Counted from the first letter of the stretch, positions 1 to 62,350 are shown. The stretch: 64,000 nt of DNA from Clostridia bacterium (GCA_017415485.1 JAFQGP010000115.1:8135-72134); one strand, 5' to 3'. Program-made: numbers and translations. The notes: generated by a model from the letters alone, not told the origin.

Positions 1-1287
1 ATGCTCGCATACGCAAGCAAGGGTGCTTTCGTATTTGAAAACTGTGTAAACAAGGGCGAGATCGCTCCCACCATCGGTAAGGCTGCAGGTCTTATCGGTA
101 ACATCAACTGCAAAGACCCCGACGGTGCATCCGGCTACTACGTTACCGTTACAAACTGTGTAAACTACGGTAAGATCACCGCAGGCGGCGACGGCAACTA
201 TGCCGCAGGTATCGCTGCAACTGTTCAGAACAACCTGAACTTCACCATTACCAAGTGTCTCAACTACGGTGAGATCAACGGCACTCACGACTCCGGCGGT
301 ATCGTAGGCCACACCACTCAGGCTGTTATGAATATGTCCTTCTGTGAGAACCACGCAAAGGTCACCACCACCAGCGATCAGTACGCAGGCGGTATCTGCG
401 GATACGCATGGGGCACCAAGACCGCTTCCGTAAGCGCTGTTGACGGTCAGTATGCGAACAAGATCGAATACTGCATCAACCACGGCGAAGTTGTTGCTAA
501 CACCCGTGCAGGCGGTATCTGCGGTTCCACCGGTACCTCCAACGCTCGCGGTATCTCCCTTATCAACTACTGCCTTAACACCGCTAACGTAACCACCAAC
601 GGCACAAAGGATAACTTCTCCCTTAACACCGCAGGCGGTATCCTCGGATACGGCTACGGCACAGAGGACGTTGCATATCCCGCAGTTACAAACTGCCTCA
701 CCACCGGTAATGTAACCGCTAAGAACACCTCCGGCGCAGGCGCAAACGCAGCTTACTTCCTTGGCTACGTTAACTCCTCTCTCGCAGTTGTTACAGGCAA
801 CCAGGCACTCGGTACTCTTACCTCCGAGTCGGGCAACATCACCTCCCTTGCAAGAAACGAGGGCCACGAATTCAAGGCAGAGAACATGGCTAAGAACAGC
901 ATCCCCTCTGATGCAGCATACGCTTATACCTACGAGAACACCATCACCGACAAGAAGTACGAAGTAAGCACAACCAATGCTGCTGAGATCGCAAGCGGTA
1001 AGCTCGTATACGGCCTCAATCTTATGGCAAAGGCTATGGGTGCTCCCTCCGACGTGATCTTTATGACACTTGACGGTTCCTTCGCTCCCACTCTCGTTCC
1101 CGAGATCGGCGAGGGCGGCCTCGTTCTCAACGCGGTAGTTGCTAACGCTGACGGCACTTTCTCCAACCCCAAGCCCGCTGCACCCGTTGCTCCCACAGGT
1201 GACTCTGCTCTCATCTACATCGCAGTTGCAGTTATCTCCATCGCTACCCTTGGAGTTGCAGCTGTTGCAAAGAAGAGAGAGAACTGA
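1..1287 (+). CDS. Cell-surface beta-helix repeat protein (GLUG-like repeats), 5'-truncated by the window edge, with a C-terminal PTGDSAL/TM/KKREN sorting signal
   Basis: The ORF is open to position 1. It has about 8 repeats of CxNxGxI/V ... (A/S)GGIxG. It ends APTGDSALIYIAVAVISIATLGVAAVAKKREN and a terminator follows. Confidence 0.8.
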   Translation: MLAYASKGAFVFENCVNKGEIAPTIGKAAGLIGNINCKDPDGASGYYVTVTNCVNYGKITAGGDGNYAAGIAATVQNNLNFTITKCLNYGEINGTHDSGGIVGHTTQAVMNMSFCENHAKVTTTSDQYAGGICGYAWGTKTASVSAVDGQYANKIEYCINHGEVVANTRAGGICGSTGTSNARGISLINYCLNTANVTTNGTKDNFSLNTAGGILGYGYGTEDVAYPAVTNCLTTGNVTAKNTSGAGANAAYFLGYVNSSLAVVTGNQALGTLTSESGNITSLARNEGHEFKAENMAKNSIPSDAAYAYTYENTITDKKYEVSTTNAAEIASGKLVYGLNLMAKAMGAPSDVIFMTLDGSFAPTLVPEIGEGGLVLNAVVANADGTFSNPKPAAPVAPTGDSALIYIAVAVISIATLGVAAVAKKREN

Positions 1288-1298
1288 TTTATATATTG

Positions 1299-1326
1299 AA
1301 AAAAGACTGCTTCGGCAGTCTTTTTT
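1299..1326 (+). terminator. Rho-independent terminator (symmetric, potentially bidirectional)
   Basis: AAAAAAGACTGC-TTCG-GCAGTCTTTTTT: perfect stem with an A-tract and a T-tract. Confidence 0.8.
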
Positions 1327-1351
1327 CAATAAGAATTGATGAGGAATTTTA

Positions 1352-6699: not shown

Positions 6700-8097
6700 A
6701 TGAAGAAATTTTTAGCACTTGCAATCACCGCTGCTATGCTTCTTTCCTTCGCAGTAATCGGTACATCCGCTGCAGAAGTATATGACGGCACAAGCGTATC
6801 CGCTTCCCTTTCCGGCGCGGGAACAGAGGCTGATCCCTATCTTATCGCAAACGGCGCAGACCTTGCATTCTTTGCTGCAAACGCAGTAGCAGGCGCTTCC
6901 TACAAGCTCACCGCTGACATCGTCTGGGCTTCCGCTGCCGAGGCAACCAACTGGACTCCCGTTGAATTCAACGGCACCTTCGACGGAAACGGTCACTCGA
7001 TCTCCGGCCTCTGCGTCAAGGGCGAAAAGAATGCTGCATTCTTCGCAACCGCAGCCGGTGCCATCAAGAACCTTACCATTAAGGATTCCACATTTGAGGG
7101 ATCGAAGTACATCGCCGCTATTGTCGGTCAGGTAGTAGCTGCAGACGCAAAGGAATCCGCTCCTTCTCTCACGATCGAGAACTGTGTAAGCTACGCTACC
7201 CTCATCTCGACCAAGAACAGCTCACTCATCGGCTCTATGATCGGCGACGCTTTCGCTAACGCGAAGACCCCCAACTATCTCACAGTTACAGTTTCGGGTT
7301 GTGTTAACTACGGCACCATCAGCTCCACCACGGACGGCACCGTTTACGTTGGCGGTATCATCGGCCGTACCTACGGTATTCCCGCAATTGTTGAAAACTG
7401 CGCGAACTTCGGCGATCTCAACTCCATTTCCGCTATCACCGGCGGTATCGTCGGCCAGGGCGGTATCAGCGGCGATACCTACGAAGGCTTCTCTACCAAG
7501 ATCAGCAACTGCCTTAACACCGGCAACGCGACCGGCAAGCGTATCTGCGGCGGTATCATCGGCCGTGCATACCCCGGCGTATACGTTGACGGATGTGTAA
7601 ACACCGGCAGCATGACCATCACCGCTACCGATGCGGCTAAGGACGGCTACAACGATCAGCTCGGCCCCATCACCGGCCACGGCCCCGATGCAAGAGCAGA
7701 TGCAGCTACCTTCGTCAACTGCGGTGAGATCACAAACTGCTACAACTCCGCAGAAGCAGTTTTCACCAACTCGAACGATGCAGCAGCCAAGCCCTTCTAC
7801 GCTTCTCTTGCAACCAATAAAACCGCTGCAGAGCTTAACAGCGCCGCTACCGTTACCGCTCTCGGCGACGCTTGGGAGCTCAAGGACGGCGTTCTTACTC
7901 TCAAGATCGTTGCTACCGCAGGCCAGGTTGAATCCGCACAGCCCGAGGTAACAGAACCTGAGGTTACCGAGCCCGCTCCCGAAGACACCAAGCCCGCGGA
8001 TCCCGTTCCCACCGGCGACTCCGCTCTCGTTTTCGCAGTGATCGCAATCATCTCCGTCCTCGGAGTTGCTGCTGTTGCAAAGAGAAGAGAGAATTAA
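6700..8097 (+). CDS. Secreted GLUG-like beta-helix repeat surface protein with a C-terminal PTGDSAL/TM/KRREN sorting signal
   Basis: Signal peptide MKKFLALAITAAMLLSFAVIGTSAAE. Repeats of CxNxG...GGIIG/GGIVG. Ends DPVPTGDSALVFAVIAIISVLGVAAVAKRREN. Confidence 0.85.
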   Translation: MKKFLALAITAAMLLSFAVIGTSAAEVYDGTSVSASLSGAGTEADPYLIANGADLAFFAANAVAGASYKLTADIVWASAAEATNWTPVEFNGTFDGNGHSISGLCVKGEKNAAFFATAAGAIKNLTIKDSTFEGSKYIAAIVGQVVAADAKESAPSLTIENCVSYATLISTKNSSLIGSMIGDAFANAKTPNYLTVTVSGCVNYGTISSTTDGTVYVGGIIGRTYGIPAIVENCANFGDLNSISAITGGIVGQGGISGDTYEGFSTKISNCLNTGNATGKRICGGIIGRAYPGVYVDGCVNTGSMTITATDAAKDGYNDQLGPITGHGPDARADAATFVNCGEITNCYNSAEAVFTNSNDAAAKPFYASLATNKTAAELNSAATVTALGDAWELKDGVLTLKIVATAGQVESAQPEVTEPEVTEPAPEDTKPADPVPTGDSALVFAVIAIISVLGVAAVAKRREN

Positions 8098-15404: not shown

Positions 15405-15896
15405 TCAATAGTTGTATCCGCCAATGCCGCTAAAGCCTGCAAAGCCATATCCCTCATCCTCGGGAGCGGGCTCTTCGGATTCAATGACCTCCTCGGCAAT
15501 TTCCATGCTGTGGGGAGAAAGCATATAGGTGGTCTCGGAAACGGGCTGTATCTGTCCGCCGATGGCGTAAACAACACCGGTGAGGAAGCAAACGAGGTCG
15601 TGGGAGACCTCCTTGGTTGCGTTCTCAAGGTGAATAAGAACGGGGTGGTTCTCCATAAGTGCGTTGGCAATGATCTGTCCATCCGCAAAGGTGGTGGGAC
15701 GAATGAGCTTCATCTGCATAGGTGCGGACATAGCCGCTCCGAAGGAAGGTCTTGCGGGAGCCTGGGGCTTGGGAGCTGCGGGCTTTTCCTCCTGTGCGGG
15801 GGCTGCAAAATCCTCTTCCTGTCCGTAGTAAGCGGGATCGTAATCTTCTTCTTTAGCAGTCTTGATCTGCTTGTTGAAAATATTAAGAGATGCCAT
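15405..15896 (-). CDS. sepF: Cell division protein SepF
   Basis: 163 aa. The conserved C-terminal domain reads ...IRPTTFADGQIIANALMENHPVLIHLENA...FLTGVVYAIGG. Confidence 0.85.
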   Translation of the reverse strand: MASLNIFNKQIKTAKEEDYDPAYYGQEEDFAAPAQEEKPAAPKPQAPARPSFGAAMSAPMQMKLIRPTTFADGQIIANALMENHPVLIHLENATKEVSHDLVCFLTGVVYAIGGQIQPVSETTYMLSPHSMEIAEEVIESEEPAPEDEGYGFAGFSGIGGYNY

Positions 15897-15912
15897 TTTT
15901 TAATCCTCCGAT

Positions 15913-16644
15913 TTATTTATCATTTGTTTTATTTTTCAAGTTCATCATGTCCGCCGTCGTTCTTCCGAAAACGCTGCTTCCAAGGCGGACGATCGTTGCA
16001 CCCGCAGCGATAGCGGGGCGGTAGCTTTCGCTCATTCCCATTGAAAATATGGGCTCTCCCTCTCTTACGAGGGTGTTTTTCCAAACATCGCATCCGATGT
16101 CGTGTGTTTCTTTGAAATATCGGTAATAATCTTCGCTGCGCTCGCATTTCGGAGCCATTGTCATGAATCCGCAAAGCTCGAGGTGCGGGTATTTTGTAAG
16201 CTCGAGGCAGAAGCCGGACAGCTCCTCGGGCAAAAGCCCGCTTTTCGATTCTTCGCGCCCGATGTTGATCTCGGCAAGCACGCGGGTCGTGATCCCTCTC
16301 TTTGCCGATTGCTTTTCGATCTCCTCGGCAAGCCCGAGAGATTCAAGCGAGTGGATAAGCGCGACCTTGTCGATTATCGACTTCACCTTGTTTCTTTGCA
16401 GATGACCGATGAAGTGTATCTCGACGCGATTTTTCATCCCCTCGTAATGCTCAAGCAGGGTGTCGGTTCTGTTTTCGCCGATGACGTCAAGCCCGCGGTG
16501 CTCGCAAAGAGCATCAAGTTCCTCGGACGTGGCGTATTTTGCGGCAACAACGAGCCGCACGTTCTCGCCGCCCGCCTCGCGGATGCCCGCCATAGCGCAG
16601 TCATAACGCAAAAGCAACTCTTCAAATCTATTTTGTTCGCTCAT
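15913..16644 (-). CDS. YggS-family pyridoxal-phosphate homeostasis protein
   Basis: Motifs VVAAKYAT, HFIGHLQRNK and SMGMSESY. I prefer the ATG at 16644 (MSEQN), 1 nt after the upstream stop; the track start at 16653 is a TTG. Confidence 0.85.
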   Translation of the reverse strand: MSEQNRFEELLLRYDCAMAGIREAGGENVRLVVAAKYATSEELDALCEHRGLDVIGENRTDTLLEHYEGMKNRVEIHFIGHLQRNKVKSIIDKVALIHSLESLGLAEEIEKQSAKRGITTRVLAEINIGREESKSGLLPEELSGFCLELTKYPHLELCGFMTMAPKCERSEDYYRYFKETHDIGCDVWKNTLVREGEPIFSMGMSESYRPAIAAGATIVRLGSSVFGRTTADMMNLKNKTNDK

Positions 16645-16645
16645 A

Positions 16646-18163
16646 TCAGTCAAGTGCCTTTCCGTGATATAGATCCTTACCCGTCAGAATGATCTGCTCA
16701 AGATCGTTCAGGTGGTAGAAATAGCGCAGTGTCCTTCCCTTCGGCACGGGTATTCCGCCGTTGTCGTACACCGTTTTCTCAAGCCCCAGCCCCTCTGCAA
16801 AAGAGTGAAGCGAGGCATAATCGTCGATCTTTCCTTGATCCGGGAAGCCGAGAGAGGTATATGTCAGCGGCTTGCCGGGCTCGGCATCGGAATAATCTGC
16901 GGCAATGCAGTAGCCGTCGCCTTCAAAGATGACCTTGATCTGTCTGAAAAGGACGTATCCGCCGCCAAGCGTGTAAACGCCTGTCATTCCGTCATAGAAA
17001 CGCACCGAGGAAAGCGGAATGCGATAGCCGTGGTAGGATGCATATTCGATGCTGACGTCCTGCGTTCTGCGATAAACGAATCCATTAGGCATCTCGCTCG
17101 TCGAAAAGATCAGAAGCGCCTCGGCGCGGTCGCCATCGTCATCGTGATCGTCAAGGTCGAGCACAAGGCGTTCAAGATTCATCGTCAGCACCTTTCCGCC
17201 GTTGTCGTTGAAGGTGATGTCGTAATCCCTTCCCGACTCAAATCCCCTCGCCTTTTCCGAGTCAAAGGGCAGGCAGAGATACCATTTCGGATTGTCGAGC
17301 ATCTTTCCGACACAGCCCGCGGTATCTGCGGGTTCTTGTGCCGTCAGTTCGGCAAATTCGCCGAAGGTAATATTTTTCAGAAGCGCGGGGTCAAAGATCG
17401 CCTCGTAGCCGTCGCAGTCGCGGAAGAAATATCCCACGCTGTCGGCGTTCACGCTTCCCGTCTTCTTGCCGTAAGCGGCAACAAGTCCGCTTCTTTCGGC
17501 ATAGAGCATACTGATTTGGTTTTTTATATCCCCCGATCCGTTTTCAAGGGCATCTATACGCCCGATTGCGGAAAGGAAGGAATCCGAGATCGCGGCTGCA
17601 TCGGCATATTTGCCCTCGGAAAGCAGGAGCATGATCTCGGCATATCCCGCACTCGCATCGCGGAGTGCTTCGGGGAGACCCGTTTCGATAACACCCGTGT
17701 CCACGATCGATTCAAGCAGGGCGATCTCGCGGTCTATCTCGGCAATACGAACGCGCACGTCATCGGTGAGAGACGAATAAAGATGGCAGATCAATTCACC
17801 CACGCCGATCCTTTCGCCGTCTACAACCTGATAATCGGGCGTGCCCGATGATTTTGTGCGGACGGGACTTTCGCTTCTGACTATATAGCCAACCCCGCGG
17901 CGGTATTCCTTTTCGGTAACGTCATAGGCGGGAGTTGTCGTGACGTCGGAGGTGAAGGTCTTTACGGTATGATAACCGAAATAGAGCACCAGCCCCACCG
18001 ATGCGGCGGCAACCGCAATCGTCAGAAGCGCTGAAAAGAGGTAGGAAAAGTCAAAGCCAATCTTTCGCTCTTTCTTCTCATCGGTGCGTCCGCTATTCAC
18101 TTTTGTTATATCCGAACGCCGCGCGGTGGCAAGCGATACTTTATCTTTTCCTTGTTTTTTCAT
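16646..18163 (-). CDS. Membrane-anchored protein with an HlyD-like barrel-sandwich/coiled-coil region; function unknown
   Basis: 505 aa. Basic N-terminus, one TM segment (LFSALLTIAVAAASVGLVLYFGY), then the lipoyl-like motif GYIVRSE...VVDGERIGVGELICHL. Confidence 0.55.
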   Translation of the reverse strand: MKKQGKDKVSLATARRSDITKVNSGRTDEKKERKIGFDFSYLFSALLTIAVAAASVGLVLYFGYHTVKTFTSDVTTTPAYDVTEKEYRRGVGYIVRSESPVRTKSSGTPDYQVVDGERIGVGELICHLYSSLTDDVRVRIAEIDREIALLESIVDTGVIETGLPEALRDASAGYAEIMLLLSEGKYADAAAISDSFLSAIGRIDALENGSGDIKNQISMLYAERSGLVAAYGKKTGSVNADSVGYFFRDCDGYEAIFDPALLKNITFGEFAELTAQEPADTAGCVGKMLDNPKWYLCLPFDSEKARGFESGRDYDITFNDNGGKVLTMNLERLVLDLDDHDDDGDRAEALLIFSTSEMPNGFVYRRTQDVSIEYASYHGYRIPLSSVRFYDGMTGVYTLGGGYVLFRQIKVIFEGDGYCIAADYSDAEPGKPLTYTSLGFPDQGKIDDYASLHSFAEGLGLEKTVYDNGGIPVPKGRTLRYFYHLNDLEQIILTGKDLYHGKALD

Positions 18164-40695: not shown

Positions 40696-40842
40696 ATGAA
40701 GAGAATTCGTACTATCAATACTCGTGACCTCAAGGCTTCCGTTAAGAACGGCGGATGCGGCGAGTGCCAGACCTCCTGCCAGTCCGCTTGCAAGACCTCT
40801 TGCGGTGTTGCTAACCAGGCTTGCGAGAAAAAGGCAAAGTAA
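40696..40842 (+). CDS. scfA: SCIFF (six-cysteines-in-forty-five) ranthipeptide precursor
   Basis: 48 aa: MKRIRTINTRDLKASVKNGGCGECQTSCQSACKTSCGVANQACEKKAK. AGGTGG RBS. It was embedded in a longer track ORF. Confidence 0.92.
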   Translation: MKRIRTINTRDLKASVKNGGCGECQTSCQSACKTSCGVANQACEKKAK

Positions 40843-41092: not shown

Positions 41093-41464
41093 ATGAATAA
41101 TATCACTATACGCGAATTAGCAGTAGAATTGACCGTTGAAATTACGCAAATATGCGATAATATCAAAGGAAGAAGCGTTTTCATAAATCAAATTTTGAGA
41201 TCCTGTTCTTCCATCGGAGCAAATTCCGCAGAAGCCAAATATGCACAAAGTTCCGCAGACTTCATTCACAAATTGGAAATCTCACTCAAAGAATGCTATG
41301 AAACCGATTATTGGCTTGAAATCCTTTATAAAACCAATTCAATGGATAAAGAAACATATATAAGATTGTTAAATAAATGCGGTTCTATTCGCAGAAAGCT
41401 TATTGCCTCCATAACAACGGCAAAAGCAAATTCAGAACAGCAATCCGGAGGTACAACAAAATGA
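41093..41464 (+). CDS. Four-helix-bundle protein (23S rRNA intervening-sequence protein family, PF05635/TIGR02436)
   Basis: 123 aa. Contains ...QILRSCSSIGANSAEAKYAQSSADFIHKLEISLKECYETDYWLEIL. AT-rich. Its stop overlaps the scfB ATG (ATGA). Confidence 0.85.
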   Translation: MNNITIRELAVELTVEITQICDNIKGRSVFINQILRSCSSIGANSAEAKYAQSSADFIHKLEISLKECYETDYWLEILYKTNSMDKETYIRLLNKCGSIRRKLIASITTAKANSEQQSGGTTK

Positions 41465-42843
41465 TCCATTCCTATAAACTTGGCGGTTACAATATCGTCC
41501 TTGACGTCGGCTCGGGCGCGGTGCACGCGGTTGATGATCTTGCCTATGACGTCATAAATCTCTACGAAACCAAGTCGGCAGACGAGATCGTCTCGGTCTG
41601 CCTTGAAAAATTCGCCTCCGAAGGTATCACCGAAGAGGACATCCGCGACACGATCTCCGACGTTGAAGAGCTCAAACAGAGCGGCAAACTTTACGCCGAG
41701 GATATCTATGCGCCCCTCGTCGGCAAGCTCAAGAACAATTCCAACATCGTCAAGGCACTCTGCCTGCACGTCGCGCACACCTGCAACCTCAACTGCGAAT
41801 ACTGCTTCGCGGCACAGGGTCGATTCCACGGCGAACGCGCCCTGATGTCATTTGAGGTCGGCAAGCGCGCGCTTGATTTCCTTGTTGAAAACTCGGGAAC
41901 CCGCCACAATCTTGAAGTCGACTTCTTCGGCGGCGAGCCGCTGATGAACTGGCAGGTCGTCAAGGATCTCGTTGCCTACGCGCGCTCGATCGAGGAAGCC
42001 GCAGGCAAGCATTTCCGCTTCACGCTGACGACAAACGGCGTGCTGATCGACGACGACGTCATTGATTTTGCCAACAAAGAGATGGACAACGTCGTTCTCT
42101 CGCTCGACGGCAGACGCCACGTGCACGACAACCTCCGCAAAACTGTGAACGGTCAGGGCAGCTATGACCTGATCCTTCCGAAGTTCAAGGAATTCGTCAC
42201 CCGCCGCGGCGACAAGGGCTACTATATGCGCGGTACATACACCAAGTTCAACACCGATTTCTGCTCCGACATCATCCACATGGCTGACGAAGGCTTTACC
42301 GAGCTTTCGATGGAGCCCGTAGTCTGCCCTCCCGGCGACCCCTACGCACTCGGCGACGAGGATCTGCCCGTGCTTTACGATCAGTATGAAAAGCTCGCCT
42401 TTGAGATGATGGACCGCAAGAAGCGCGGCAAGCCGATCACCTTCTATCACTATATGCTCGACCTTGAGGGCGGCCCCTGCATCTACAAGAGAATTTCCGG
42501 CTGCGGCTCGGGCACCGAGTATATGGCTGTCACCCCTTGGGGCGACCTTTACCCCTGCCATCAGTTCGTCGGCGACGAAAAATACCTCCTCGGCGACATC
42601 TGGAAGGGCGTAACGAACGACGCCATCCGCGACGAATTCCGCTCCTGCTCGGCATATTCGAGAGAGGAATGCCGCGACTGCTGGGCCAGACTCTACTGCT
42701 CCGGCGGCTGCGCCGCGAACTCCTACCACGCAACCGGAAGCGTAAACGGCGTTTATGAGTACGGATGTAAGCTGTTCAAGAAACGAATCGAGTGCGCGAT
42801 CATGCTGAAGGTCGCGGAATCCCTCGAAAACGAAGAAGAATAA
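41461..42843 (+). CDS. scfB: SCIFF radical SAM/SPASM maturase
   Basis: Start at MIHSYKLGGYNIVLDVGSGAVHAVDD. CNLNCEYC radical-SAM motif and a Cys-rich SPASM C-terminus (CRDCWARLYCSGGCAANS). Confidence 0.92.
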   Translation: MIHSYKLGGYNIVLDVGSGAVHAVDDLAYDVINLYETKSADEIVSVCLEKFASEGITEEDIRDTISDVEELKQSGKLYAEDIYAPLVGKLKNNSNIVKALCLHVAHTCNLNCEYCFAAQGRFHGERALMSFEVGKRALDFLVENSGTRHNLEVDFFGGEPLMNWQVVKDLVAYARSIEEAAGKHFRFTLTTNGVLIDDDVIDFANKEMDNVVLSLDGRRHVHDNLRKTVNGQGSYDLILPKFKEFVTRRGDKGYYMRGTYTKFNTDFCSDIIHMADEGFTELSMEPVVCPPGDPYALGDEDLPVLYDQYEKLAFEMMDRKKRGKPITFYHYMLDLEGGPCIYKRISGCGSGTEYMAVTPWGDLYPCHQFVGDEKYLLGDIWKGVTNDAIRDEFRSCSAYSREECRDCWARLYCSGGCAANSYHATGSVNGVYEYGCKLFKKRIECAIMLKVAESLENEEE

Positions 42844-50538: not shown

Positions 50539-52860
50539 TTATTTTTTGATCTTGACCGAGATCACCCAATCTCCCGCGTCAGGTTTAGCGGGGAGTGTAT
50601 ATGTTCCGTCGGTAACCGTCACGGTGAATGCATCACCGTATTCGCCGGTGATGCAACTGAACCATTGAACCTCGTATTCGCCGTTTGCCATTGCCGTAAG
50701 CTTGCCAAGCTTACCGTTGGTGTTATTGCCATAGAAGTAGCCGAGATAAAGCTCGTTACCGATATGGCAGACCGAATACTTGCAGGAGCCGGGCTGATAG
50801 AAATAGGATTTATTGAAGCAGGGCACAAGGCGCCACCATTCATATTTCTGAAGATAATCTTTGATATAAGTTATCTGCTCACCGGACTCCAGATACAGTC
50901 CCTCTATCCAGTTCAGTCCTTTATCAAAGGTCTCGCCGTATGAGTCGATTATCGTTCTGGTTTCGTAGTCGGGATATCCGTTTTGCGCCCAGAAAATGCT
51001 CCATATGGGCTGTGCTCCGTAGCCGTATCCGAACTGACCGTTCATATACGCACCCCACGCTTGGATACGGACACCATATCCGCTTCCGCCGCTTTCGTCC
51101 CAATGGTCATACGGACCCTCGTAGTTTACAACGGGCTTACAGCCGTAATTATTGTAAAACTCCTTTGCCCACTCCCAATTTATTCCGTTGAAAGCATAGT
51201 TATACTGTGCCGCGTACCAAGAGTGATTTTCCGAATCATCAAAGCGTGAATTTTCAACACGGGTATAAATCGAATTTTCCTGATGACATGTGGACGGATG
51301 ATCGTACGGATCATATTTTGCGACCCAGTCCATTACGTAGAACCACGGATTCGTCTCGGGAGTTGCCGCGCAGTCGCCGCGGTCAACGCCGTAATAATCG
51401 TTGTCGCCCTCCTGCGTGGTCGCCCACATAACGGGATACGCACTATACCTTGCAACCCAATAGCGAGATAGCTTTTCAAGCTGCTCGTCAGTAATCTTTC
51501 CGCCGAAATATGCGCTCATTAAGGTCGTTGGATATCCAAACTGAGTATTTGAATGAACAAGTCCGTAATCAGCTATTATTTTAAAATAGCGATCATATTG
51601 CTCGAACTTTTCCAGCATAAAGTCATTTACGCCAAGGGTGAAGATATTTTCGGCTCCATCCTGAAACCATATCTGATCGTTGACATCCCACCAATAAAGG
51701 GGTTGCGACTGAATAACGGTATAGCCTTGCTCGGCACGGTAGTTAATAATATAATCAAACTGCGAGGTGATGCCGTACTGATCTGCGATCTCCTTGGTGA
51801 TACCCGCGACCTTTTGGGTCTCGACTGAGCCGTATCCGTCGATCTCCTCTATCGCAAGAGTCCAATGAGTATCGCCAAGATAGAAGAAGGGCGTGCCGTC
51901 ATCATACATAAAATAGTTTTTTCCCGGCTCGGTCTTGACAAATCCGTGCTTGTAGATATCGAGATTACCCGAGTATTCCTTACAGAGCACGCTGCCGCCG
52001 CGATGATGCAGACCGCTGTTTGCGGTATCGGTGCATACGGTATAAAAGCTCCACTCACCAACCTCTGTGGGTGCGAAACGAACCTTCCAGCTCGTTCCGC
52101 CGTCCCAAAATGCAGGAACTTTGAGCGCAGTACCGCTTGACTTATTATAAAAAATAACGTCGGTGTCAACAGTATAAACCGGATTTTCGTATTCCTTTGA
52201 GCTTTCAAATTCGATCTCGCAGGCTACCCATTTTTCGGTCTCTGCCTTGAATAATTCGCCAACGGGTGTAATATTTTCCACTATAGCTTCGTCCTTTTTA
52301 CCATTTTCGGATGAATACGCCGAGTCAATAATATTGAGACTTTCGGGAATGAGAGGCTCGCCTCCCTCGGCAGCGGCTATATAATCGTTTATAAATCTCT
52401 CTGTGGCAACAACCGTGAGATTATCGTTGTAACCAATGATAACGATCTTGTTTCCAACAGCGCGGATGGCATACTCACCCACAGAAAGAGTGAGATAGAC
52501 CTCGCGGCTCTCACGGCGGTTTGTCTCGCCAACGAGTATTTCAGCACCTTCGCTGATATATTCACCAGCCATGGGCTTGCCCTGCACCCAGTCATCCGTA
52601 TCCTTGACAGAGATACCGAGCTTCTCCTCAATTGTGGATTTTATGCTTTTGATTGCCGAAAAAAGGGTTGTAGAGCATTTTTCGGGACGAACGAGAGTAT
52701 ACAAAAGCTCTCCGTTTTCAATTAATTTAAGATAAGTCTCTTCTTTTTCGGTTTCGAGAGAGGTCGTTTCCTGAGGAAGAGTCTCCTCGGGAACGTCCGT
52801 ACATCCAAAAATCGGAATCATCATAAGAAGAGCGAGAATAAAGCTTATGAATTTTTTCAT
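50539..52860 (-). CDS. Lipoprotein: N-terminal domain shared with 26897-28132, plus DUF5060 and DUF4038 (GH140-like glycoside hydrolase)
   Basis: Lipobox PIFGCT. DUF5060-like segment VPAFWDGGTSWKVRFAPTEVGEWSF. DUF4038 hallmark DGTPFFYLGDTHW. Confidence 0.7.
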   Translation of the reverse strand: MKKFISFILALLMMIPIFGCTDVPEETLPQETTSLETEKEETYLKLIENGELLYTLVRPEKCSTTLFSAIKSIKSTIEEKLGISVKDTDDWVQGKPMAGEYISEGAEILVGETNRRESREVYLTLSVGEYAIRAVGNKIVIIGYNDNLTVVATERFINDYIAAAEGGEPLIPESLNIIDSAYSSENGKKDEAIVENITPVGELFKAETEKWVACEIEFESSKEYENPVYTVDTDVIFYNKSSGTALKVPAFWDGGTSWKVRFAPTEVGEWSFYTVCTDTANSGLHHRGGSVLCKEYSGNLDIYKHGFVKTEPGKNYFMYDDGTPFFYLGDTHWTLAIEEIDGYGSVETQKVAGITKEIADQYGITSQFDYIINYRAEQGYTVIQSQPLYWWDVNDQIWFQDGAENIFTLGVNDFMLEKFEQYDRYFKIIADYGLVHSNTQFGYPTTLMSAYFGGKITDEQLEKLSRYWVARYSAYPVMWATTQEGDNDYYGVDRGDCAATPETNPWFYVMDWVAKYDPYDHPSTCHQENSIYTRVENSRFDDSENHSWYAAQYNYAFNGINWEWAKEFYNNYGCKPVVNYEGPYDHWDESGGSGYGVRIQAWGAYMNGQFGYGYGAQPIWSIFWAQNGYPDYETRTIIDSYGETFDKGLNWIEGLYLESGEQITYIKDYLQKYEWWRLVPCFNKSYFYQPGSCKYSVCHIGNELYLGYFYGNNTNGKLGKLTAMANGEYEVQWFSCITGEYGDAFTVTVTDGTYTLPAKPDAGDWVISVKIKK

Positions 52861-54317
52861 GATAACACCTTTCTGATCGTCTCAACAACACCGACATTCG
52901 TCCATATCGAAATTACTGAAAGAGCAGCGGTCAAAACGCCGAATATCGGCTTTTCGTAACCCTCGCTCTTCTCGGTCAGATTCATAAGAACAGCCGCCGA
53001 GATCATTGCGAGTATCACGGAAATATCGTAAACGTATCTCATATTGACTCCGCCGAGGCAGAAATCCGAGAAGGCTATGCCAAGGGCGAGAACGGCGGTC
53101 ACGCAGACCATTGCTGTCTTCCACACATCCCTCTCGCCGCGATGCTTTTCGATAAGCGCGAGGCGGGGATAGAGAAGAATACCGAGGGGCAGACCGTAAG
53201 CAAAGACTCCGCAGGCGCGGTCGGCGTAGAAATACCTTGCTTCTTTGGGCAATACCATAATTCTCTGCATCTCAATGAAGGGCTTCGCCTCACTTTGCCA
53301 CATCGGGCAGAGGAAATAGGAGAAGAAGGACGAGAAAAGGTACTTGAGATCGATCGTATTCAGCGAAACGTCGCTGACGGTGAGCTGATAATTCGCGCCG
53401 AAATCAAGCGGCGAGCCGAAACGCGCGTTGTTATACCACATTACGGCAAGCGCGCCCGCGATCAGGGGGAGTGCGAAGGATGCGACTGTCAAAAGCCCGT
53501 CCTTCAAGGTATCCTTGCGGATCTTGAAAATGAATTCGATAAAGAGCGGGAAAACGGCGACGCACATCAGCGCGACAGTCGGGCGCGACCATACGGTCAG
53601 CGTCAGCGCAAGCGCGGCAAGGACGAGCATTATCATTCTCGCCCACAGCTTCTCTTCCCTCATCGAGCGAACCGCGAGGGCGACGAAAGCCATCGAGAAG
53701 GTCTGCGCCGAGAGCACGGCGACGTAATACATATCCGAGCAAAGCACGCCGAGGTAAACTCCGCTTGCGCAAACGGTTCCCGCAAGTCCGATCAGAAAGA
53801 GCCAAAGATTCGGCTTTTTGATAAATCGGATCACGACCTCGCGATAGGCAAGCGCAGTCGCGATCACCGCTGCGATGGCGAGGATCAGGCAAGTGAGCGA
53901 TATATTCGGCAGCTTGCCCGTCAGCGCGTATATCGGCGAGTGGACGGTGATGATCGGCGCGATGCCGAAATAGGAATAGTATTTTCCCTCGAAAAATGCG
54001 TAATCCCAATTATATCTCGCTCCGGAATTTTTTCTTTCGGTTGGGTCATACGGATTTTCAAGCGCGGCAAGTCTGTGGTCTACTTCGAGATCAAGCTCGA
54101 TCTGTCCCTTTTGCCATGCATCGAACTGCCTGATATAAATATCCGTCGGCACACGACCGCCAACCTCGTATTCGATCAGCTCGGGCTCCTTGCCCATCGT
54201 GGGGAAGCACGTGGCGGCGAGTATCAGCACGACAAGAAAAAAGAGAATATTGTTATATATATTTTTCGGGCTGAAATGCGCGCCCGCGATTCTTTTTATA
54301 GTCTTCATTGGTTTCAC
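52857..54317 (-). CDS. Polytopic membrane protein (GT-C-like glycosyltransferase fold suspected)
   Basis: 486 aa, about 11 TM segments, with an extracytoplasmic first loop. Its stop overlaps the start of the downstream glycosidase lipoprotein gene. Confidence 0.5.
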   Translation of the reverse strand: MKPMKTIKRIAGAHFSPKNIYNNILFFLVVLILAATCFPTMGKEPELIEYEVGGRVPTDIYIRQFDAWQKGQIELDLEVDHRLAALENPYDPTERKNSGARYNWDYAFFEGKYYSYFGIAPIITVHSPIYALTGKLPNISLTCLILAIAAVIATALAYREVVIRFIKKPNLWLFLIGLAGTVCASGVYLGVLCSDMYYVAVLSAQTFSMAFVALAVRSMREEKLWARMIMLVLAALALTLTVWSRPTVALMCVAVFPLFIEFIFKIRKDTLKDGLLTVASFALPLIAGALAVMWYNNARFGSPLDFGANYQLTVSDVSLNTIDLKYLFSSFFSYFLCPMWQSEAKPFIEMQRIMVLPKEARYFYADRACGVFAYGLPLGILLYPRLALIEKHRGERDVWKTAMVCVTAVLALGIAFSDFCLGGVNMRYVYDISVILAMISAAVLMNLTEKSEGYEKPIFGVLTAALSVISIWTNVGVVETIRKVLS

Positions 54318-54434
54318 CTCGGTAATATTATACCATCAGCAGGCAATAAAGTCAAGAATCGGACTGATTTTATTCTTGACAAGAAATAGATTTTATGATA
54401 TAATGTTCTGTCAAATCATCGAAAGGACAATAAT

Positions 54435-55307
54435 ATGATAATACATTCTTTTTTGCACGCGATCGAGCACACCCTGCCGATCATACCTTTTTTATACTTG
54501 ACTTATCTGCTGATGGAGCTACTTGAGCGAAAAGCGGGAGGCAAAATGCAAAGGATAATTTCGGACGCAGGAAAATTCGGACCTATCCTCGGTGCCCTGC
54601 TCGGTGTAGTGCCTCAATGCGGCTTTTCCGCCGTCGGATCGGGTCTTTATGCGGGCAGGGTGATCACGACGGGAACACTTCTTGCAATCTTCCTTTCGAC
54701 ATCCGACGAAATGCTGCCTTTGCTCATTTCATCGGGCGCACCGATCGGACTGATACTAAAAATTCTCGCATCAAAGTTGATAATCGCCGCGATTGCGGGC
54801 ATTGCAGTTGACGGTATCACAAGGATCATCGCCAAGGATAAAAACGAAAAACACAAGATCGGCGAGATCTGCTCGGCAGAACATTGCCATTGCGACAGCC
54901 AATCGATATGGCTTGCCTCTCTCGTGCACACACTCAAGATCACGGCAAGCGTCTTTACCGTCAGCTTCGCGCTTGAGATCGCACTTGAACTGCTCGGCGA
55001 GAATTTTCTTTCGGGTATCCTTACGGGAACGCCCGTTATCGGCTGTCTTTTTGCAGCAATAGTCGGACTCATCCCCAACTGCGCGTCATCGGTCGCGATC
55101 ACACAGCTTTATCTTGAAGGCGTCATATCGTCGGGCGCAATGCTCTCGGGACTCCTCGTCGGCGCGGGGATCGGAATCCTTGTCCTCCTCCGTGCTAACC
55201 GACCGCTCAAAGACTCCATTCGCGTCATTGCTATCCTATTCGGTATCGGACTCGCCGCAGGACTTGTCTTTGATCTGATCTCTATAGGAACAATAATCAA
55301 TATATAG
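54435..55307 (+). CDS. 10-TM putative metal exporter (ArsP_2-like)
   Basis: 290 aa. Contains GVVPQCGFSAVGSGLYAGRVITTGTLLAIFLSTSDEMLPLLIS, and a second half-repeat with PNCASSV. Confidence 0.55.
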   Translation: MIIHSFLHAIEHTLPIIPFLYLTYLLMELLERKAGGKMQRIISDAGKFGPILGALLGVVPQCGFSAVGSGLYAGRVITTGTLLAIFLSTSDEMLPLLISSGAPIGLILKILASKLIIAAIAGIAVDGITRIIAKDKNEKHKIGEICSAEHCHCDSQSIWLASLVHTLKITASVFTVSFALEIALELLGENFLSGILTGTPVIGCLFAAIVGLIPNCASSVAITQLYLEGVISSGAMLSGLLVGAGIGILVLLRANRPLKDSIRVIAILFGIGLAAGLVFDLISIGTIINI

Positions 55308-55338
55308 AAAACACCCGCACAGCGGGTGTTTTCTATAT
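55303..55338. terminator. Bidirectional terminator
   Basis: ATATAGAAAACACCCGC-acag-CGGGTGTTTTCTATAT. Confidence 0.85.
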
Positions 55339-55341
55339 AGA

Positions 55342-57057
55342 TCAGTTCGTCTTCTCTCCGTAAACGAGGATCTCGCGGGTATTGATGGTGTTGTATTTGT
55401 TTTCTTCGTCATTTCTGCCGACAATGACGCCAACACGGATATACTGTCCCTCGACACCGCCCATATCAAACAGGCAGGTGACCTTCGAGGTATTGCCGTT
55501 CCAGGGGTCCTTCGGCGAGGTTCCGCAGTTGACAAGATCGGTTCCTGTCACCTGATTCCAGCAAGCCGTAGGCACCTGGGTCCAATTCACTCCGTCATCG
55601 CTGACATAGACAGCAGCAACTCCGGGGAATCCCTCAAGGCTTCCCGAAGCGAATCCCATTGCATCAAACTTGTGCTTCGAGCCGAAATTGAGGGTGATAA
55701 GGCAGGTATAGGGAGAATTTGCATCGACCTCGCCCTTGATGTTATAGGTCTTATCGTCAAAGACGAAGTTTGCCATAAAGGAGTTGCCCCAGTGGCCGTT
55801 GACAAGGTTTTCGACAGCTGTGGTGTAGCCCTTTGCGGAGGAATCCATTTTTTCGATACCTATTACCGAAACACCGTAGCCGATATCGGCAATGTCAGCC
55901 TTCTGCGCGTCGGTAAGTCCCGTGGTCGAATACTCGGTCGATGCGATCGCATTCTTGGTGCCGAGAATACCCGAGAAGCTCTTGCCGTTCGGGTATGTTC
56001 CGCCCTCGAGGACGGAGATGAGCTTCGACTTCGGGAAAGCGGTCAGGTTCTTCATAGCCGAAGCATCGACCGCATAGGTCTTCTCAACGAATTCAACGCC
56101 GACAGACGAGGTCTTGTACTTTTCGGGGATCGCGGGAGTCTCCCAAACAGCCTTGCGAGCCGCTTCTTTGAGAACAGCCGCCGCTTCATCGGTAAGATTT
56201 GCATTGTAATCGACCGTGGTGGGATCGATACCCGTGATCTTTGCAAAGATCGTCATCGCCGCGAGATAGCTTCCCGTAGCGTTGGGGTGGGTCAGGTCGG
56301 AATCATAGAGGTTGATGTTCTTGTTATTGTTATAAACGTCAAAGAAAGCAAGACCCGCATATGCAATGTCGATACCGAGCTCGGCGCCGATAGCCTCGTA
56401 TGCCGCGCTGATCATCCAGGTCATACTCTCGTTGGTCCAGCCGTTTTCCTTGAGAACGCTGTGTCCCTCTTTTCTGCCCCAGGTGCCGTAGAGAATGGGG
56501 GTCGCGCCGTCTGCAATCACCTTTGCGGCAAGGTTGCGCACGCCGGTGTAGAACTTATCGGGGTACAGCGCGGGGCAGGTGCTCTGCTCCTGCAGAACGA
56601 TGTAATCGTAATCGCGGAGCTTAAGCGCGGAGTCAACCTTCGCGCCGACCTCGTCGGTCGACTTTGCGGAATCGATCAGATACCATCCGCCCTTGGTGAT
56701 ACGGGTGACGGTGGCATCATAGCCCGCCGCCTTCAGTATCTTCGCAAAGATCTGCTCGGGCATATCGTTATAATGAGTATAGCTGTTTCCGATAAAGAGG
56801 AAATTGTATTTCTTGCTCTTGTCGAGGACCGTGGTTTCGGGCTCGGCGGTGGTCTCGGGAGCGGGCTCGGTCGCCTCGGTCTCGGGAGCGGGCTCGGTCG
56901 CCTCGGTCTCGGGAGCGGCAGTGGTTACTTCAATTTCGGGTGCTTTGGTGGTTTCCTCGGGGGCTGTGGTGACTTCACCTTCGCCCGTGCAGGCAACACC
57001 CGCAAAAAGCATTGAGAAAAGCAAAAGCATTGCGATCAATCTCTTTTTCATTGTCAT
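55342..57057 (-). CDS. Lipoprotein with a DUF4886 (SGNH-like) domain and a C-terminal discoidin-like domain
   Basis: Lipobox FAGVACT. T/E/P-rich linker with the EATEPAPET repeat. FLFIGNSYTHYNDMP is DUF4886-like. Confidence 0.6.
   Translation of the reverse strand: MTMKKRLIAMLLLFSMLFAGVACTGEGEVTTAPEETTKAPEIEVTTAAPETEATEPAPETEATEPAPETTAEPETTVLDKSKKYNFLFIGNSYTHYNDMPEQIFAKILKAAGYDATVTRITKGGWYLIDSAKSTDEVGAKVDSALKLRDYDYIVLQEQSTCPALYPDKFYTGVRNLAAKVIADGATPILYGTWGRKEGHSVLKENGWTNESMTWMISAAYEAIGAELGIDIAYAGLAFFDVYNNNKNINLYDSDLTHPNATGSYLAAMTIFAKITGIDPTTVDYNANLTDEAAAVLKEAARKAVWETPAIPEKYKTSSVGVEFVEKTYAVDASAMKNLTAFPKSKLISVLEGGTYPNGKSFSGILGTKNAIASTEYSTTGLTDAQKADIADIGYGVSVIGIEKMDSSAKGYTTAVENLVNGHWGNSFMANFVFDDKTYNIKGEVDANSPYTCLITLNFGSKHKFDAMGFASGSLEGFPGVAAVYVSDDGVNWTQVPTACWNQVTGTDLVNCGTSPKDPWNGNTSKVTCLFDMGGVEGQYIRVGVIVGRNDEENKYNTINTREILVYGEKTN
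56851..56918. repeat. 27-nt tandem repeat (2.5 copies) encoding the linker of the lipoprotein
   Basis: GGTCTCGGGAGCGGGCTCGGTCGCCTC x2 plus a partial copy; on the minus strand it encodes (EATEPAPET)n. Confidence 0.9.
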
Positions 57058-57113
57058 TGATCCTTTCGGGTAATTATAAGATAATATAATAATATATTAT
57101 TTTACCCGATTTG

Positions 57114-57779
57114 TCAAGTGTTTTTTGCGATTTTCATCAATTCCTGCCAAGTGACAACGCCCGCGACCGAGTCTGCCGTGATTCCGCGGCTCCTTTGAAA
57201 CGCTGCCAGCGCCTTCGCAGTTGCGGGACCGAAGCTTGAGTCACATTCAATCTTTGCGCCGTGAAAGTTGAGAAGCGTCTGCAAAAGCTTGACCTCTTCG
57301 CCCTTGGCGCCTCGCTTGAGCAGTTTTCTTTCTTGTATTACAGTCAATTTGTTCACCTCACTTAAATCCTTATCAAAATATTTTTCCGGATCGACCCACT
57401 CGCCGAAAAGCGAGATCCCGAAGTGCAAATGTGCCCCCGTGCTTCTTCCCGTGCTGCCCATATAGCCAAGGATCTCCCCTTTTACCACCTTATCGCCCTT
57501 TTTCACCCGAAGCGTGCCTTTTTTGAAGTGGCAATAGAGCGTGACGAGCGTTTCATCGTGCCTGATCTTGCAATAATAACCCGAGCGCGAATTATATCCC
57601 GCCTCGATGACTTCACCCGAGTCGAACGCAACCACATAATCCGACACCGCACCGCCGTTTTCGGCAACGGCGACAAGATCGACTCCTGTGTGATGCTCTT
57701 TTTTGCCAAATATCACGCGCGAGCCGAATGGATACGTGATCTTATATCTGTCATAATTCTTAAAAAATCTCGAAGCCAT
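57114..57779 (-). CDS. M23 peptidase fused to a PG_binding_1 domain (endolysin-like)
   Basis: Contains HTGVDL and GSTGRSTGAHLHF. C-terminal LLKRGAKGEEVKLLQTLL...FGPATAKALAAFQ. Confidence 0.85.
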   Translation of the reverse strand: MASRFFKNYDRYKITYPFGSRVIFGKKEHHTGVDLVAVAENGGAVSDYVVAFDSGEVIEAGYNSRSGYYCKIRHDETLVTLYCHFKKGTLRVKKGDKVVKGEILGYMGSTGRSTGAHLHFGISLFGEWVDPEKYFDKDLSEVNKLTVIQERKLLKRGAKGEEVKLLQTLLNFHGAKIECDSSFGPATAKALAAFQRSRGITADSVAGVVTWQELMKIAKNT

Positions 57780-57780
57780 C

Positions 57781-58212
57781 TTATGCCGCTCCCCTTTTCA
57801 GCGCTTTGATCTCTCCGCGAAGCGATTCGATCTCGGCGCGGAGCTGATCGAGCTCGCTCGGCGCATACTCCTTCGGCTCACGCCCGCCGGGGTAAGCGGT
57901 ATCAATGACCCGAAGCTCGCCGCGCGCGCTGACGAGTCTGTTTCCGCCCGAGTCGATTCCATCAAGCACAAACACCGCAGTTCCCGCATTCGCCATGACC
58001 TCATCGGGCACTCTGACAGCATTTTCGCTTAACAGCAAAGCCACTCCATCGCCCCCGCCCGCGGGAAAAAAGGTTACCCGCTTATTCATCCCCTGCCAAT
58101 CGGGCGAAAGATCGAACACGATCCGGCAGCTCCCGAAACTCCCGCGCGTGCCCGCCACCGCCCAATCGGGCGTCAATTTCCAAAGATCTGCTTTAATATT
58201 GATTTCCTTCAT
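57781..58212 (-). CDS. Hypothetical protein (143 aa) coupled to the M23 peptidase gene
   Basis: There is a 1-nt gap to the downstream gene. C-terminal coiled coil ELDQLRAEIESLRGEIKALK. Possibly phage-derived. Confidence 0.5.
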   Translation of the reverse strand: MKEINIKADLWKLTPDWAVAGTRGSFGSCRIVFDLSPDWQGMNKRVTFFPAGGGDGVALLLSENAVRVPDEVMANAGTAVFVLDGIDSGGNRLVSARGELRVIDTAYPGGREPKEYAPSELDQLRAEIESLRGEIKALKRGAA

Positions 58213-58352: not shown

Positions 58353-59987
58353 TCAGTTTTCTCTTCTCTTTGCAACAACTGCAACTCCGCAAAGGGAGAT
58401 AACAGCAACAACAGCGAAGATGAGAGCGGAGTCGCCGGTGGGAACGGGATCTGCAGGAACTTCGGGCTCGGTGATAACGGGATCAAGCTTGCCCTCGGGA
58501 TCCGAGATAATGAGTCCCTTGTAGATGTTGATATCCTTGTACTCTGCAACAAGGCTCTTGTTGTGGAGGTAGAAGCCTACACAAACCTGGAAACCGGACT
58601 CGTGAGGATAAGGAGTGCCATCGGTAGCCTTGGTGGTGTTGGTCATATCGATAACGTTGTAGGAGATCCACTTGCCTTCGGTGTTGAGGTAGTAAATGGT
58701 AGCCTGGTAACCGTGCATCTCAACGCGGAAGGTTGCGTAACCGTCTGCATCGTGGCCGAGGTCTTCAACAGGAACATACTCCTTGCCGGGAGTGTTGATG
58801 TTTGTGATCTTGGTGGAACCGTGCTCGGTTGCGAAGGAACCGGTCTGGAAGTTACCGTAGATATTGAAGGAGTTGTTGAAGGGATGGAGGGTAGGAACTG
58901 CGAAGCAGAAACCGGTGTTCTTTGCGCCGGTCTTTACCTTCCACTCAGTGGTGTATCTGGTCTCGGAGTTGATCTCAAGGCCTTCAACGATAGAACCGTA
59001 GTATGTACCCTTTTCTGCGGAGCCGTCCTGCTCGATCTTGATGTAGTCCTTATCAGCGGGATCAAGAGTGATGTTGAACTTTTCGCCGTTAGCAGCAAGG
59101 AAACGTGCGGAGAAGCCGGTATCCTTTCTCGAGAAATCGGGGGTAAAGAGAATGTCGCCGGTCTTAGCCTTATCGTAACCGGTTACGGAAGCACCCTCAA
59201 CGTAGTAGTCGGGGTAAGTGGGGTTCTTAACGGTGTTGCCTTCGTAAACAACAGCATCCTTGATGGTGATAGCTGCGCCCGGGTTGTAGAGGTATGCGGA
59301 GAGACCGAAGTTGGGAGCAACCTCAAGAAGACCGGTGTTGAATGCATCATACTCGTCGATGTATACGTTGTTGATGAATACCTTAACGTTTGCACCGGTA
59401 ACTACGAAATCGATGTCAACGAAGCCCTCAGCGTCAACTGCGGAGAGGTACTTTGCGTCGGTAACGTAAGCATCGCCATAGAAAATGGAACCGATGGACT
59501 TACCGCCTGCACCGTAGCTCATTACGTGACGGATGTTGGGACAACCGTAGTAGCCAACAAGAGATTTGTAACCAAGGTCAAGAAGATACTGAGCCTCGGT
59601 GTTGGTGGGCATGTTGATGAACACACCTGCGTTGCCGGAAGCGAGCTTACCGTCGGTATCGGTGTAAGCAACTGCCATCTTCATAGAGAAGGTGTAGTTC
59701 TTGCCCTCGCCGTAGGTGAGACCCTTGATTGCGCCGCCCCAGAATGCACGGCCTGCAGCAGTACCTGCATAGGTAACGGTTGCGGACTTGCCGTCATCGG
59801 AAACGGTTGTTGCGAGAGTTCCGTCGCCCTTGAGGAGACAGAAATCTGCGGGAGCGTACTTGTCGTCGCCCTTGAAGTTGACTTCATAGAGAACGTCGCC
59901 TTCCTTAGCGGAAGCGGTGATTCCCATAGCAGCAACAAGCGCGAGGATCATTGTGAGAGAAAGAATTGCGCTGAGGATCTTTTTCAT
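58353..59987 (-). CDS. Secreted surface protein (beta-sandwich/lectin-like, function unknown) with a PTGDSAL/TM/KRREN sorting signal
   Basis: Signal peptide MKKILSAILSLTMILALVAAMGITASA. Ends DPVPTGDSALIFAVVAVISLCGVAVVAKRREN. It is a paralogue of the next gene. Confidence 0.8.
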   Translation of the reverse strand: MKKILSAILSLTMILALVAAMGITASAKEGDVLYEVNFKGDDKYAPADFCLLKGDGTLATTVSDDGKSATVTYAGTAAGRAFWGGAIKGLTYGEGKNYTFSMKMAVAYTDTDGKLASGNAGVFINMPTNTEAQYLLDLGYKSLVGYYGCPNIRHVMSYGAGGKSIGSIFYGDAYVTDAKYLSAVDAEGFVDIDFVVTGANVKVFINNVYIDEYDAFNTGLLEVAPNFGLSAYLYNPGAAITIKDAVVYEGNTVKNPTYPDYYVEGASVTGYDKAKTGDILFTPDFSRKDTGFSARFLAANGEKFNITLDPADKDYIKIEQDGSAEKGTYYGSIVEGLEINSETRYTTEWKVKTGAKNTGFCFAVPTLHPFNNSFNIYGNFQTGSFATEHGSTKITNINTPGKEYVPVEDLGHDADGYATFRVEMHGYQATIYYLNTEGKWISYNVIDMTNTTKATDGTPYPHESGFQVCVGFYLHNKSLVAEYKDINIYKGLIISDPEGKLDPVITEPEVPADPVPTGDSALIFAVVAVISLCGVAVVAKRREN

Positions 59988-60037
59988 AATCAGATTCCTT
60001 TCTTTATTTTTCGGTCATACCGAATTGATACAATATA

Positions 60038-60116: not shown

Positions 60117-60136
60117 TGATTATGTTGATGAATTTA

Positions 60137-62334: not shown

Positions 62335-62350
62335 AGGAGGCGGCAGCGGG

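Follow-up and report, generated by a model that had tools for sequence, protein, structure and literature searches.

The stretch of DNA analyzed here, 64,000 nucleotides from an uncultured ruminant-gut Clostridia bacterium (GCA_017415485.1, JAFQGP010000115.1:8135-72134; hereafter the window), encodes four secreted proteins, designated A to D, which share a C-terminal tail of 35 residues comprising the motif (P/V)(V/A)PTGDSAL, a helix of ~20 residues, and the basic end AK(K/R)REN. This tail is probably a sortase-type cell-wall sorting signal, representing a degenerate, lineage-specific descendant of the clostridial and ruminococcal class-B-type signal (S/P/N)-P-x-T-G-D. The main support for this assignment is provided by the architecture of the tail, its matches to sortase-signal models, a continuum of motifs, the conservation of T-G-D, biochemical precedent, and the lack of a competing signal. 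As a portable module, the tail occurs on cargo proteins that are unrelated, and it is much better conserved than that cargo, far beyond chance.

Four surface proteins with a common tail

A six-frame regular-expression scan of the window for PTGD at most 31 residues from a stop codon, combined with the tail described above, returned exactly four open reading frames (ORFs), which confirmed the common C-terminus that an earlier note on this DNA had recognized in the proteins at 1-1287 and 6700-8097. A fifth match to the expression, PRTGE in RluD, is unrelated. The proteins and their parts are as follows (aa, amino acids; AF2, AlphaFold2):

1..1287, plus strand: protein A, C-terminal 428 aa of a 685-aa secreted GLUG-like beta-helix protein, with the tail ..APVAPTGDSALIYIAVAVISIATLGVAAVAKKREN
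1186..1284, plus strand: candidate sorting signal of A, VAPTG-DSAL, a 22-residue hydrophobic segment, and KKREN (regular-expression scan, alignment)
1195-1197 (T) and 1198-1200 (G), plus strand: codons of the putative scissile pair of A
6700..8097, plus strand: protein B, 465-aa secreted GLUG-type beta-helix protein, with the tail ..ADPVPTGDSALVFAVIAIISVLGVAAVAKRREN
6700..6774, plus strand: Sec signal peptide of B, MKKFLALAITAAMLLSFAVIGTSA, followed by AE after the predicted cleavage site (read from the sequence)
7930..8001, plus strand: Pro/Glu/Thr-rich disordered linker of B, residues ~411-434 (pLDDT <50 for residues 411-440)
8002..8094, plus strand: candidate sorting signal of B, PVPTG and then D-S (regular-expression scan, alignment, AF2 model)
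8011-8013 (T) and 8014-8016 (G), plus strand: codons of the putative scissile pair of B
8020-8079, plus strand: hydrophobic helix of the B tail
8080-8094, plus strand: basic tail KRREN of B
58353..59987, minus strand: protein C, 544-aa secreted protein, paralogue of D
58356..58448, minus strand: candidate sorting signal of C, PVPTGDSALIFAVVAVISLCGVAVVAKRREN (regular-expression scan, alignment)
60137..61855, minus strand: protein D, 572 aa from MKRIF, paralogue of C, with 61855 as the likely start
60140..60232, minus strand: candidate sorting signal of D, PVPTGDSALIFAVVAIISVLGVATIAKRREN (regular-expression scan, alignment)

The N-terminus of protein A lies upstream of the window edge, and a full-length copy with a signal peptide is encoded on a public contig from the same species (L045, 2468..4588). 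The ORF of protein D stays open to a GTG codon at 61915 (60137..61915, minus strand). The N-termini of proteins B, C, and D are Sec-type signal peptides composed of MKK or MKR, a hydrophobic core, and an A-x-A site. Three of the window tails carry PVPTG and one carries VAPTG, and TGD is present in all four. Each shows the tripartite arrangement of motif, hydrophobic segment of ~20 residues, and basic tail. The AF2 model of protein B (pLDDT 85.7) comprises a helix at residues 2-19, corresponding to the signal peptide, a beta-helix body, a disordered stretch at residues 411-440, and a helix at residues 441-464 which begins directly after T438-G439-D440. The sortase-signal layout proposed in the earlier note was thus borne out.

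The cargo of proteins A and B is of the GLUG-motif right-handed beta-helix type. Protein B scores below the threshold of the Pfam Glug family (PF07581, 16 bits vs. 20.5), which is annotated on its homologs in precomputed listings, and matches PDB entry 3n6z both in a sequence search (E 2.3e-6) and in a Foldseek search with the AF2 model (E 1.3e-9), the latter also returning IgA1 protease beta-helix domains. Protein C shows a weak match to the 3-keto-disaccharide hydrolase/DUF1080 family, and protein D could be assigned to none of the Pfam or NCBIfam families. Compared without their tails, A and B share 25% identity (E 3e-9) and C and D 34%, whereas no similarity was detected between the A/B and C/D bodies (E>0.05). 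The proteins at 58-62 kb, previously regarded as two unrelated carriers of the signal, are therefore unrelated to A and B but are paralogues of each other. Over their last 45 residues, the four tails share 23 invariant columns and are 67-77% identical in pairs, so that the tail is conserved much better than its cargo. At the DNA level, the window tails are 82-86% identical, and 14-31% of the codons for identical tail residues differ synonymously, which argues that the amino acid sequence is under selection and not merely freshly copied.

The linker preceding the tail, of the PAPETTEP type, is kept in relatives across species. It is often doubled as PAPETTEPAPETTEP and followed by G/S-rich residues (tails of loci L001-L044 and protein hits; for example, L016, 8429..10138). 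Being more regular than a spacer requires, it may serve for glycosylation or as a repeat that spans the wall.

Antisense ORFs of 443-595 aa overlap surface-protein genes of the window (60116..61903, plus strand; 58563..60038, plus strand; 1..1329, minus strand; 55672..57015, plus strand). They bear no sign of being real genes and would mislead a gene caller that selects the longest ORF.

Conservation of the motif and its relation to known sorting signals

A pattern scan of one genome per species recovered 44 loci in 13 metagenome-assembled genomes (MAGs), all labelled as Eubacteriales or Clostridia bacterium and originating from goat, yak, or cattle hindgut. IleS encoded in the window is 99% identical to that of MAG GCA_017516195.1 (JAFXDS01), from the same species, and its nearest named relatives belong to Ruminococcaceae/Oscillospiraceae (~72%). 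The fetched loci contain 3-10 tails per genome, often as tandem arrays, and two further TGD tails are encoded just upstream of the window start. When 1.84e9 representative proteins were searched exhaustively with a profile, in place of a tail-only profile homology search that gave short fragments only, 106 matches at E<=1e-3 (protein clusters at 50% identity) were obtained, all placed at the C-terminus or within ~10 residues of it; a metagenome scan for neighborhoods returned 19 contigs, all <6 kb and uninformative. The cargo includes GLUG beta-helices, DUF1080-like proteins, GDSL lipases, a metallophosphoesterase, and many proteins of unknown family, in agreement with the portable module postulated in the earlier note.

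Among the metagenomic proteins are three mini-proteins, P0006 (79 aa), P0009 (71 aa), and P0057 (68 aa), which carry the TGD tail without a cargo domain; in these, only a short (TKPAD)n-type linker separates the tail from a signal or lipoprotein signal peptide. They may be decoys, wall 'fillers', or assembly artefacts.

Motif statistics were derived from 252 unique homologous tails taken from the lineage loci and the protein hits. The T and G of the motif are conserved in 96% and 98% of these tails, respectively. The Asp that follows was fixed by the search expression and its count is not an independent result; by eye, it is missing in only ~3 of ~220 listed tails. After TGD, Ser is found in 80% of tails and is followed by a small or hydrophobic run ending in F or Y, a helix with near-invariant S and G residues, and K(R/K)(R/K)EN. 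The DSAL sequence, described earlier as invariant, is so in the window only and not across the family. No residue is fixed upstream of T-G. Proline, the residue that kinks classical sortase substrates, occupies the third position of the LPXTG pentapeptide in 46% of tails (PVPTG, STPTG) and the second in 28% (PPTTG, GPATG, NPxTG), and single genomes mix PVPTG, PPTTG, GPETG, and SGETG. The shifted proline of x-x-P-T-G, which the earlier note took for a conserved feature, is thus not one; only T, G, and the following Asp are kept. The high conservation of T and G while positions 1-3 drift, together with the synonymous divergence of the tails, points to selection on the putative scissile pair.

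The motif is also connected to recognized signals by intermediates. Weaker-scoring profile matches carry NPxTGD, SPKTGD, and PPKTGD, so the tail grades into class-B-type motifs, and distant orthologs of protein B carry NPNTGD and PPATGD. The combination of Asn, Ser, or Pro at position 1 with Pro at position 2 occurs in these weaker relatives only and is absent from the window tails.

We scanned 18,950 NCBIfam models, including other families of C-terminal sorting signals. The domain models matching isolated tails are TIGR01167 (LPXTG_anchor) and NF033846 (Rumino_NPXTG), and isolated tails also match the C-termini of sortase substrates (SclA/B, M protein, EF0750_LPXTG, and IsdC). In the window, TIGR01167 reaches 14.0 bits on the isolated tail of B and 13.3 bits on that of A (cut-off 15.9), with the match running from T-G onward, and PF00746 reaches 12.9 (cut-off 20), so that the tail is, as the earlier note expected, not called by standard LPXTG models at threshold. 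Isolated sibling tails exceed the TIGR01167 cut-off (PPTTGD 18.3, GPATGD 18.0, and GPETGD and SGETGD 16.1 bits), NF033846 gives 13-21 bits on sibling tails and relatives (cut-off 23.5) but yields no match on the window tails, and the JGI annotation already calls one fragment (P0014) an LPXTG-motif protein. None of the models for the signature motifs of non-sortase systems (PEP-CTERM, GlyGly-CTERM, PGF-CTERM, MYXO-CTERM, GPS-CTERM, and others) recognizes the tail at threshold; PGF-CTERM (13.7 vs. 18.8) and GPS-CTERM (15.6 vs. 28) match below threshold and in the hydrophobic segment only. Two further candidates were rejected: a Firmicu-CTERM/exosortase-type signal found no match in the NCBIfam scan, and GVDTG_CTERM (NF058571) matched only the helix of one relative (11.9 bits vs. 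a cut-off of 29) and is not the TGD-tail family.

Compared with known systems, the tail most resembles the substrates of Clostridioides difficile SrtB, seven of eight predicted examples of which read (S/P)PxTG-D or NVQTG-D (PMC4155245). Both groups occur in Clostridia and combine T-G-D(S/N) with a hydrophobic segment and a basic tail. This enzyme cuts the PVPPKTGDS peptide of CD2831 at the T-G bond, and cleavage is increased at least 2-fold by the two native residues that follow (PMC4155245); the window sequence PVPTGDS equals this peptide minus two residues. C. difficile uses a single class B sortase for a variety of surface enzymes and adhesins, whose genes are not linked to that of the sortase, and no linkage was found here either. 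The two groups differ in that the window motif is two residues shorter and has no Pro at position 2, positions 1-3 are free in the window lineage, and the helix and KRREN are far more uniform. An Asp at P2' is required by Bacillus anthracis SrtB (PMC11987632).

Proline at position 3 had been considered non-canonical, but it was known already from group A Streptococcus (GAS) pilins, which carry (E/Q/V)(V/P)PTG and are substrates of Spy0129, a class B sortase of S. pyogenes (PMC3019223). In these signals, as in PVPTG, Val at position 2 and Pro at position 3 precede T-G, so a position-3 Pro is compatible with a sortase. In contrast to the tails described here, the GAS sequences are polymerization signals with Val, not Asp, after TG, and their sortase is encoded in the same operon, whereas the window cargo proteins are not pilins and have no sortase gene nearby.

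The best-scoring signal models, NF033846, TIGR01167, and PF00746, match the tail from T-G through the helix to the basic end, and the N-P or L-P half of their motifs is absent from the window tails. The models of the M protein and Scl tails (NF033777, NF038329/30) were matched as well. The end of the M-protein tail, ..GVAAVVKRKEEN, matches GVAAVAKRREN of the window; these proteins differ in carrying a full LPSTGE, in belonging to a different phylum-level lineage, and in using a class A sortase. In the Ruminococcaceae, sortase anchoring is established through ScaE.

Putative processing and alternative explanations

If the tail is a sortase signal, the proteins would be exported by the Sec pathway through the observed N-terminal signal peptide. 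The C-terminal helix and, as a stop-transfer sequence, the K(R/K)REN tail, both seen as sequence features, would retain them in the membrane, while the disordered Pro/Glu/Thr linker would span the cell wall. A membrane sortase, presumably encoded elsewhere in the genome, would cleave between T and G, as C. difficile SrtB does with its substrates (PMC4155245), and would join the Thr carboxyl group to peptidoglycan; both this wall attachment and the class of the enzyme are putative. Recognition in this lineage would now rest on T-G-D(S) beside the helix, leaving positions 1-3 of the pentapeptide free, and the tail would serve as the general surface-display module of the lineage for many unrelated cargo proteins. 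Candidate substrate peptides for the putative sortase are KPADPVPTGDSAL and TEPGSSSDTGDSFV.

In the window, no sortase gene was detected by Pfam analysis of 28 ORFs, by a TLxTC regular expression, or by phmmer searches with Staphylococcus aureus SrtA and SrtB, as stated in the earlier note, and no class B sortase is encoded within ±10 kb of ~100 tail-carrying genes. Substrate genes are located next to srtB in the Isd and pilus loci, but not in C. difficile, and they are not so located here. All-versus-all clustering of 614 neighboring genes revealed no protease family as a conserved neighbor, the genes kept in synteny being housekeeping or carbohydrate-active ones. Among 1946 ORFs in 818 kb of lineage DNA, there is no canonical LPXTG, LAXTG, NPXTG, or NPQTN tail, so the TGD tail looks like the general sorting signal of the lineage and, if a sortase exists, TGD tails are its substrates. 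A processing enzyme of its own, as presumed earlier for this module, is therefore not indicated.

Several observations weigh against a sortase signal. No sortase was found by the TLxTC expression and phmmer with S. aureus SrtA and SrtB in 78 related loci (~0.97 Mb in total); the SrtB query, checked against the PDB, finds C. difficile SrtB at 1e-29, and as the loci cover only a few percent of each genome, the result shows a lack of linkage and not absence. Pfam listings around relatives with canonical motifs (P0096, P0168, P0112, and P0098) likewise contain no sortase. Full-length window proteins do not match TIGR01167 at all, and full-length proteins miss all curated cut-offs, relatives reaching at most 21 bits with NF033846 (cut-off 23.5) and 11-15.8 bits with TIGR01167 (cut-off 15.9). 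Moreover, 28% of the 252 tails have Pro at neither position 2 nor position 3 (SSDTG, SGETG), ~4% have G, A, S, or Q in place of T and ~2% have S in place of G, and the enzyme of one genome would need to accept, for example, SEPTG, GPATG, SGETG, and GPTTG. NVQTG is not cleaved by C. difficile SrtB in vitro (PMC4155245), which indicates that loss of the position-2 Pro is not automatically tolerated.

The strongest alternative, although clearly less probable than a sortase signal, is that the tail is an uncleaved C-terminal transmembrane anchor of the type I kind derived from a former sortase signal, which would keep the proteins tethered to the membrane and in which T-G-D-S acts as a helix-capping or juxtamembrane element. 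Such an anchor would fit the conservation of the helix and basic tail beyond the needs of a sortase (near-invariant S, G, and AK(R/K)REN), the unconstrained positions 1-3, and the lack of a sortase gene near any of the ~100 tail-carrying genes; some C. difficile candidates with good motifs are reported to behave unlike classical substrates (PMC5569036). However, a mere anchor does not explain why T and G are retained next to three drifting residues, every best-matching model describes a sortase signal, and the P2' Asp is exactly what class B sortases need.

Cleavage by a non-sortase enzyme, in the manner of an exosortase, archaeosortase, rhombosortase, or CPBP-type protease, with T-G-D as a new motif in a lineage without sortase, appears improbable. 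Compatible with it are the failure to find a sortase in the loci scanned, the weak sub-threshold matches to PGF-CTERM, GPS-CTERM, and the C-terminus of an ArtA-dependent S-layer glycoprotein, and a second, Cys-containing C-terminal module without a known model (described below), which suggests unconventional sorting. These matches, however, are confined to the hydrophobic segment or the Pro/Thr linker and remain far below the cut-offs, the 614 clustered genes include no conserved protease-like neighbor, and the tail is connected to sortase signals by its gradation into NPxTGD, SPKTGD, and PPKTGD. That the tails resemble each other without functional meaning, as a result of a 3' gene segment having recently been duplicated or gene-converted, is very improbable: the DNA identity of the window tails and the tandem arrays would suit it, but it is contradicted by the synonymous differences, by the presence of the tail on unrelated cargo, and by its conservation across species, in at least 13 species-level MAGs and in 106 clusters at 50% identity.

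It seems rather unlikely that the processing enzyme reads essentially only T-G-D(S) against the membrane helix, which would make it a sortase whose specificity has shifted to P1 and the primed side and which accepts any residues at positions 1-3 or, if sortase is absent, a different enzyme, with the Gly-Cys tail of paralogous proteins as a second, undescribed signal.

A second tail, neighboring genes, and significance

The same arrays also encode paralogues that end, instead of in the TGD tail, in a different portable module, consisting of ..(E/K)K-G-C-G-(G/S), ~20 hydrophobic residues, and KKK(D/EN); an example is SGCGAAISGGAIVAILCMGVAMIAKKKEN. One such gene is located ~2.3 kb upstream of the window start (L045, 472..2334, equivalent to L069, 5759..7621), and others were found in L042 (11395..13257 and 15711..17570), L038 (6887..9112), L036 (5837..7450), P0170, P0172, P0177, and P0212. 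The loci contain ~25 copies, on GLUG, GDSL-lipase, and phosphoesterase cargo. This tail is not recognized by any sorting-signal model of Pfam or NCBIfam, the only similarity being 11.9 bits to the C-terminus of a MYXO-CTERM-anchored family. Its Gly-Cys motif, helix, and basic tail recall the MYXO-CTERM layout, here in a Firmicute. The module may represent a so far undescribed C-terminal sorting signal of the Cys type in Firmicutes, possibly more novel than the TGD tail.

Downstream of the genes for C and D, a conserved gene string (50539..58212, minus strand) occurs in the same order in 8-9 related loci (for example, L001, 12239..18863). It encodes a 143-aa protein of unknown function, an M23 peptidase with a PG_binding_1 domain, a DUF4886/F5_F8 protein, a 486-aa multi-pass membrane protein without a family, and an apiosidase-like lipoprotein; the copy in the window has acquired an inserted ArsP_2 gene. 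This string could form a cell-surface glycan-processing unit. Further paralogues are encoded left of the window. The right end of the window (~61906..64000 and beyond) is variable between strains (L079, 1..9900 vs. L080, 1..8000). One strain carries genes for an MT-A70 methyltransferase, a REP_ORF2-G2P replication protein, and an SLT lytic transglycosylase, a block that is a mobile element or prophage, together with a shortened protein D; the other has a sigma-70/Big_14 block and an intact protein D. The window also encodes a SCIFF six-cysteine ranthipeptide precursor (TIGR03973, 85.6 bits; 40696..40842, plus strand) and, adjoining it, the radical SAM/SPASM maturase of SCIFF (TIGR03974, 758.6 bits; 41377..42843, plus strand), a known and common clostridial system.

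Screens based on LPXTG, NPXTG, or (S/P)PXTG regular expressions and hidden Markov models miss this whole class of tails. The surface proteomes of abundant uncultured ruminant hindgut Clostridia are thus left 'hypothetical' and without assigned localization, the gap amounting to at least 106 clusters at 50% identity and to 5-10 or more copies per genome in the sampled loci. The mechanism proposed here is a familiar one and represents an incremental extension, unless the genomes prove to be without sortase; the cognate enzyme could serve in ligation with a minimal tag. The tail family constitutes a natural experiment in which the Leu/Asn-Pro half of the motif has been freed from selection while T-G-D has been kept, and it points to recognition of the primed side and P1, in agreement with recent class B sortase biochemistry.

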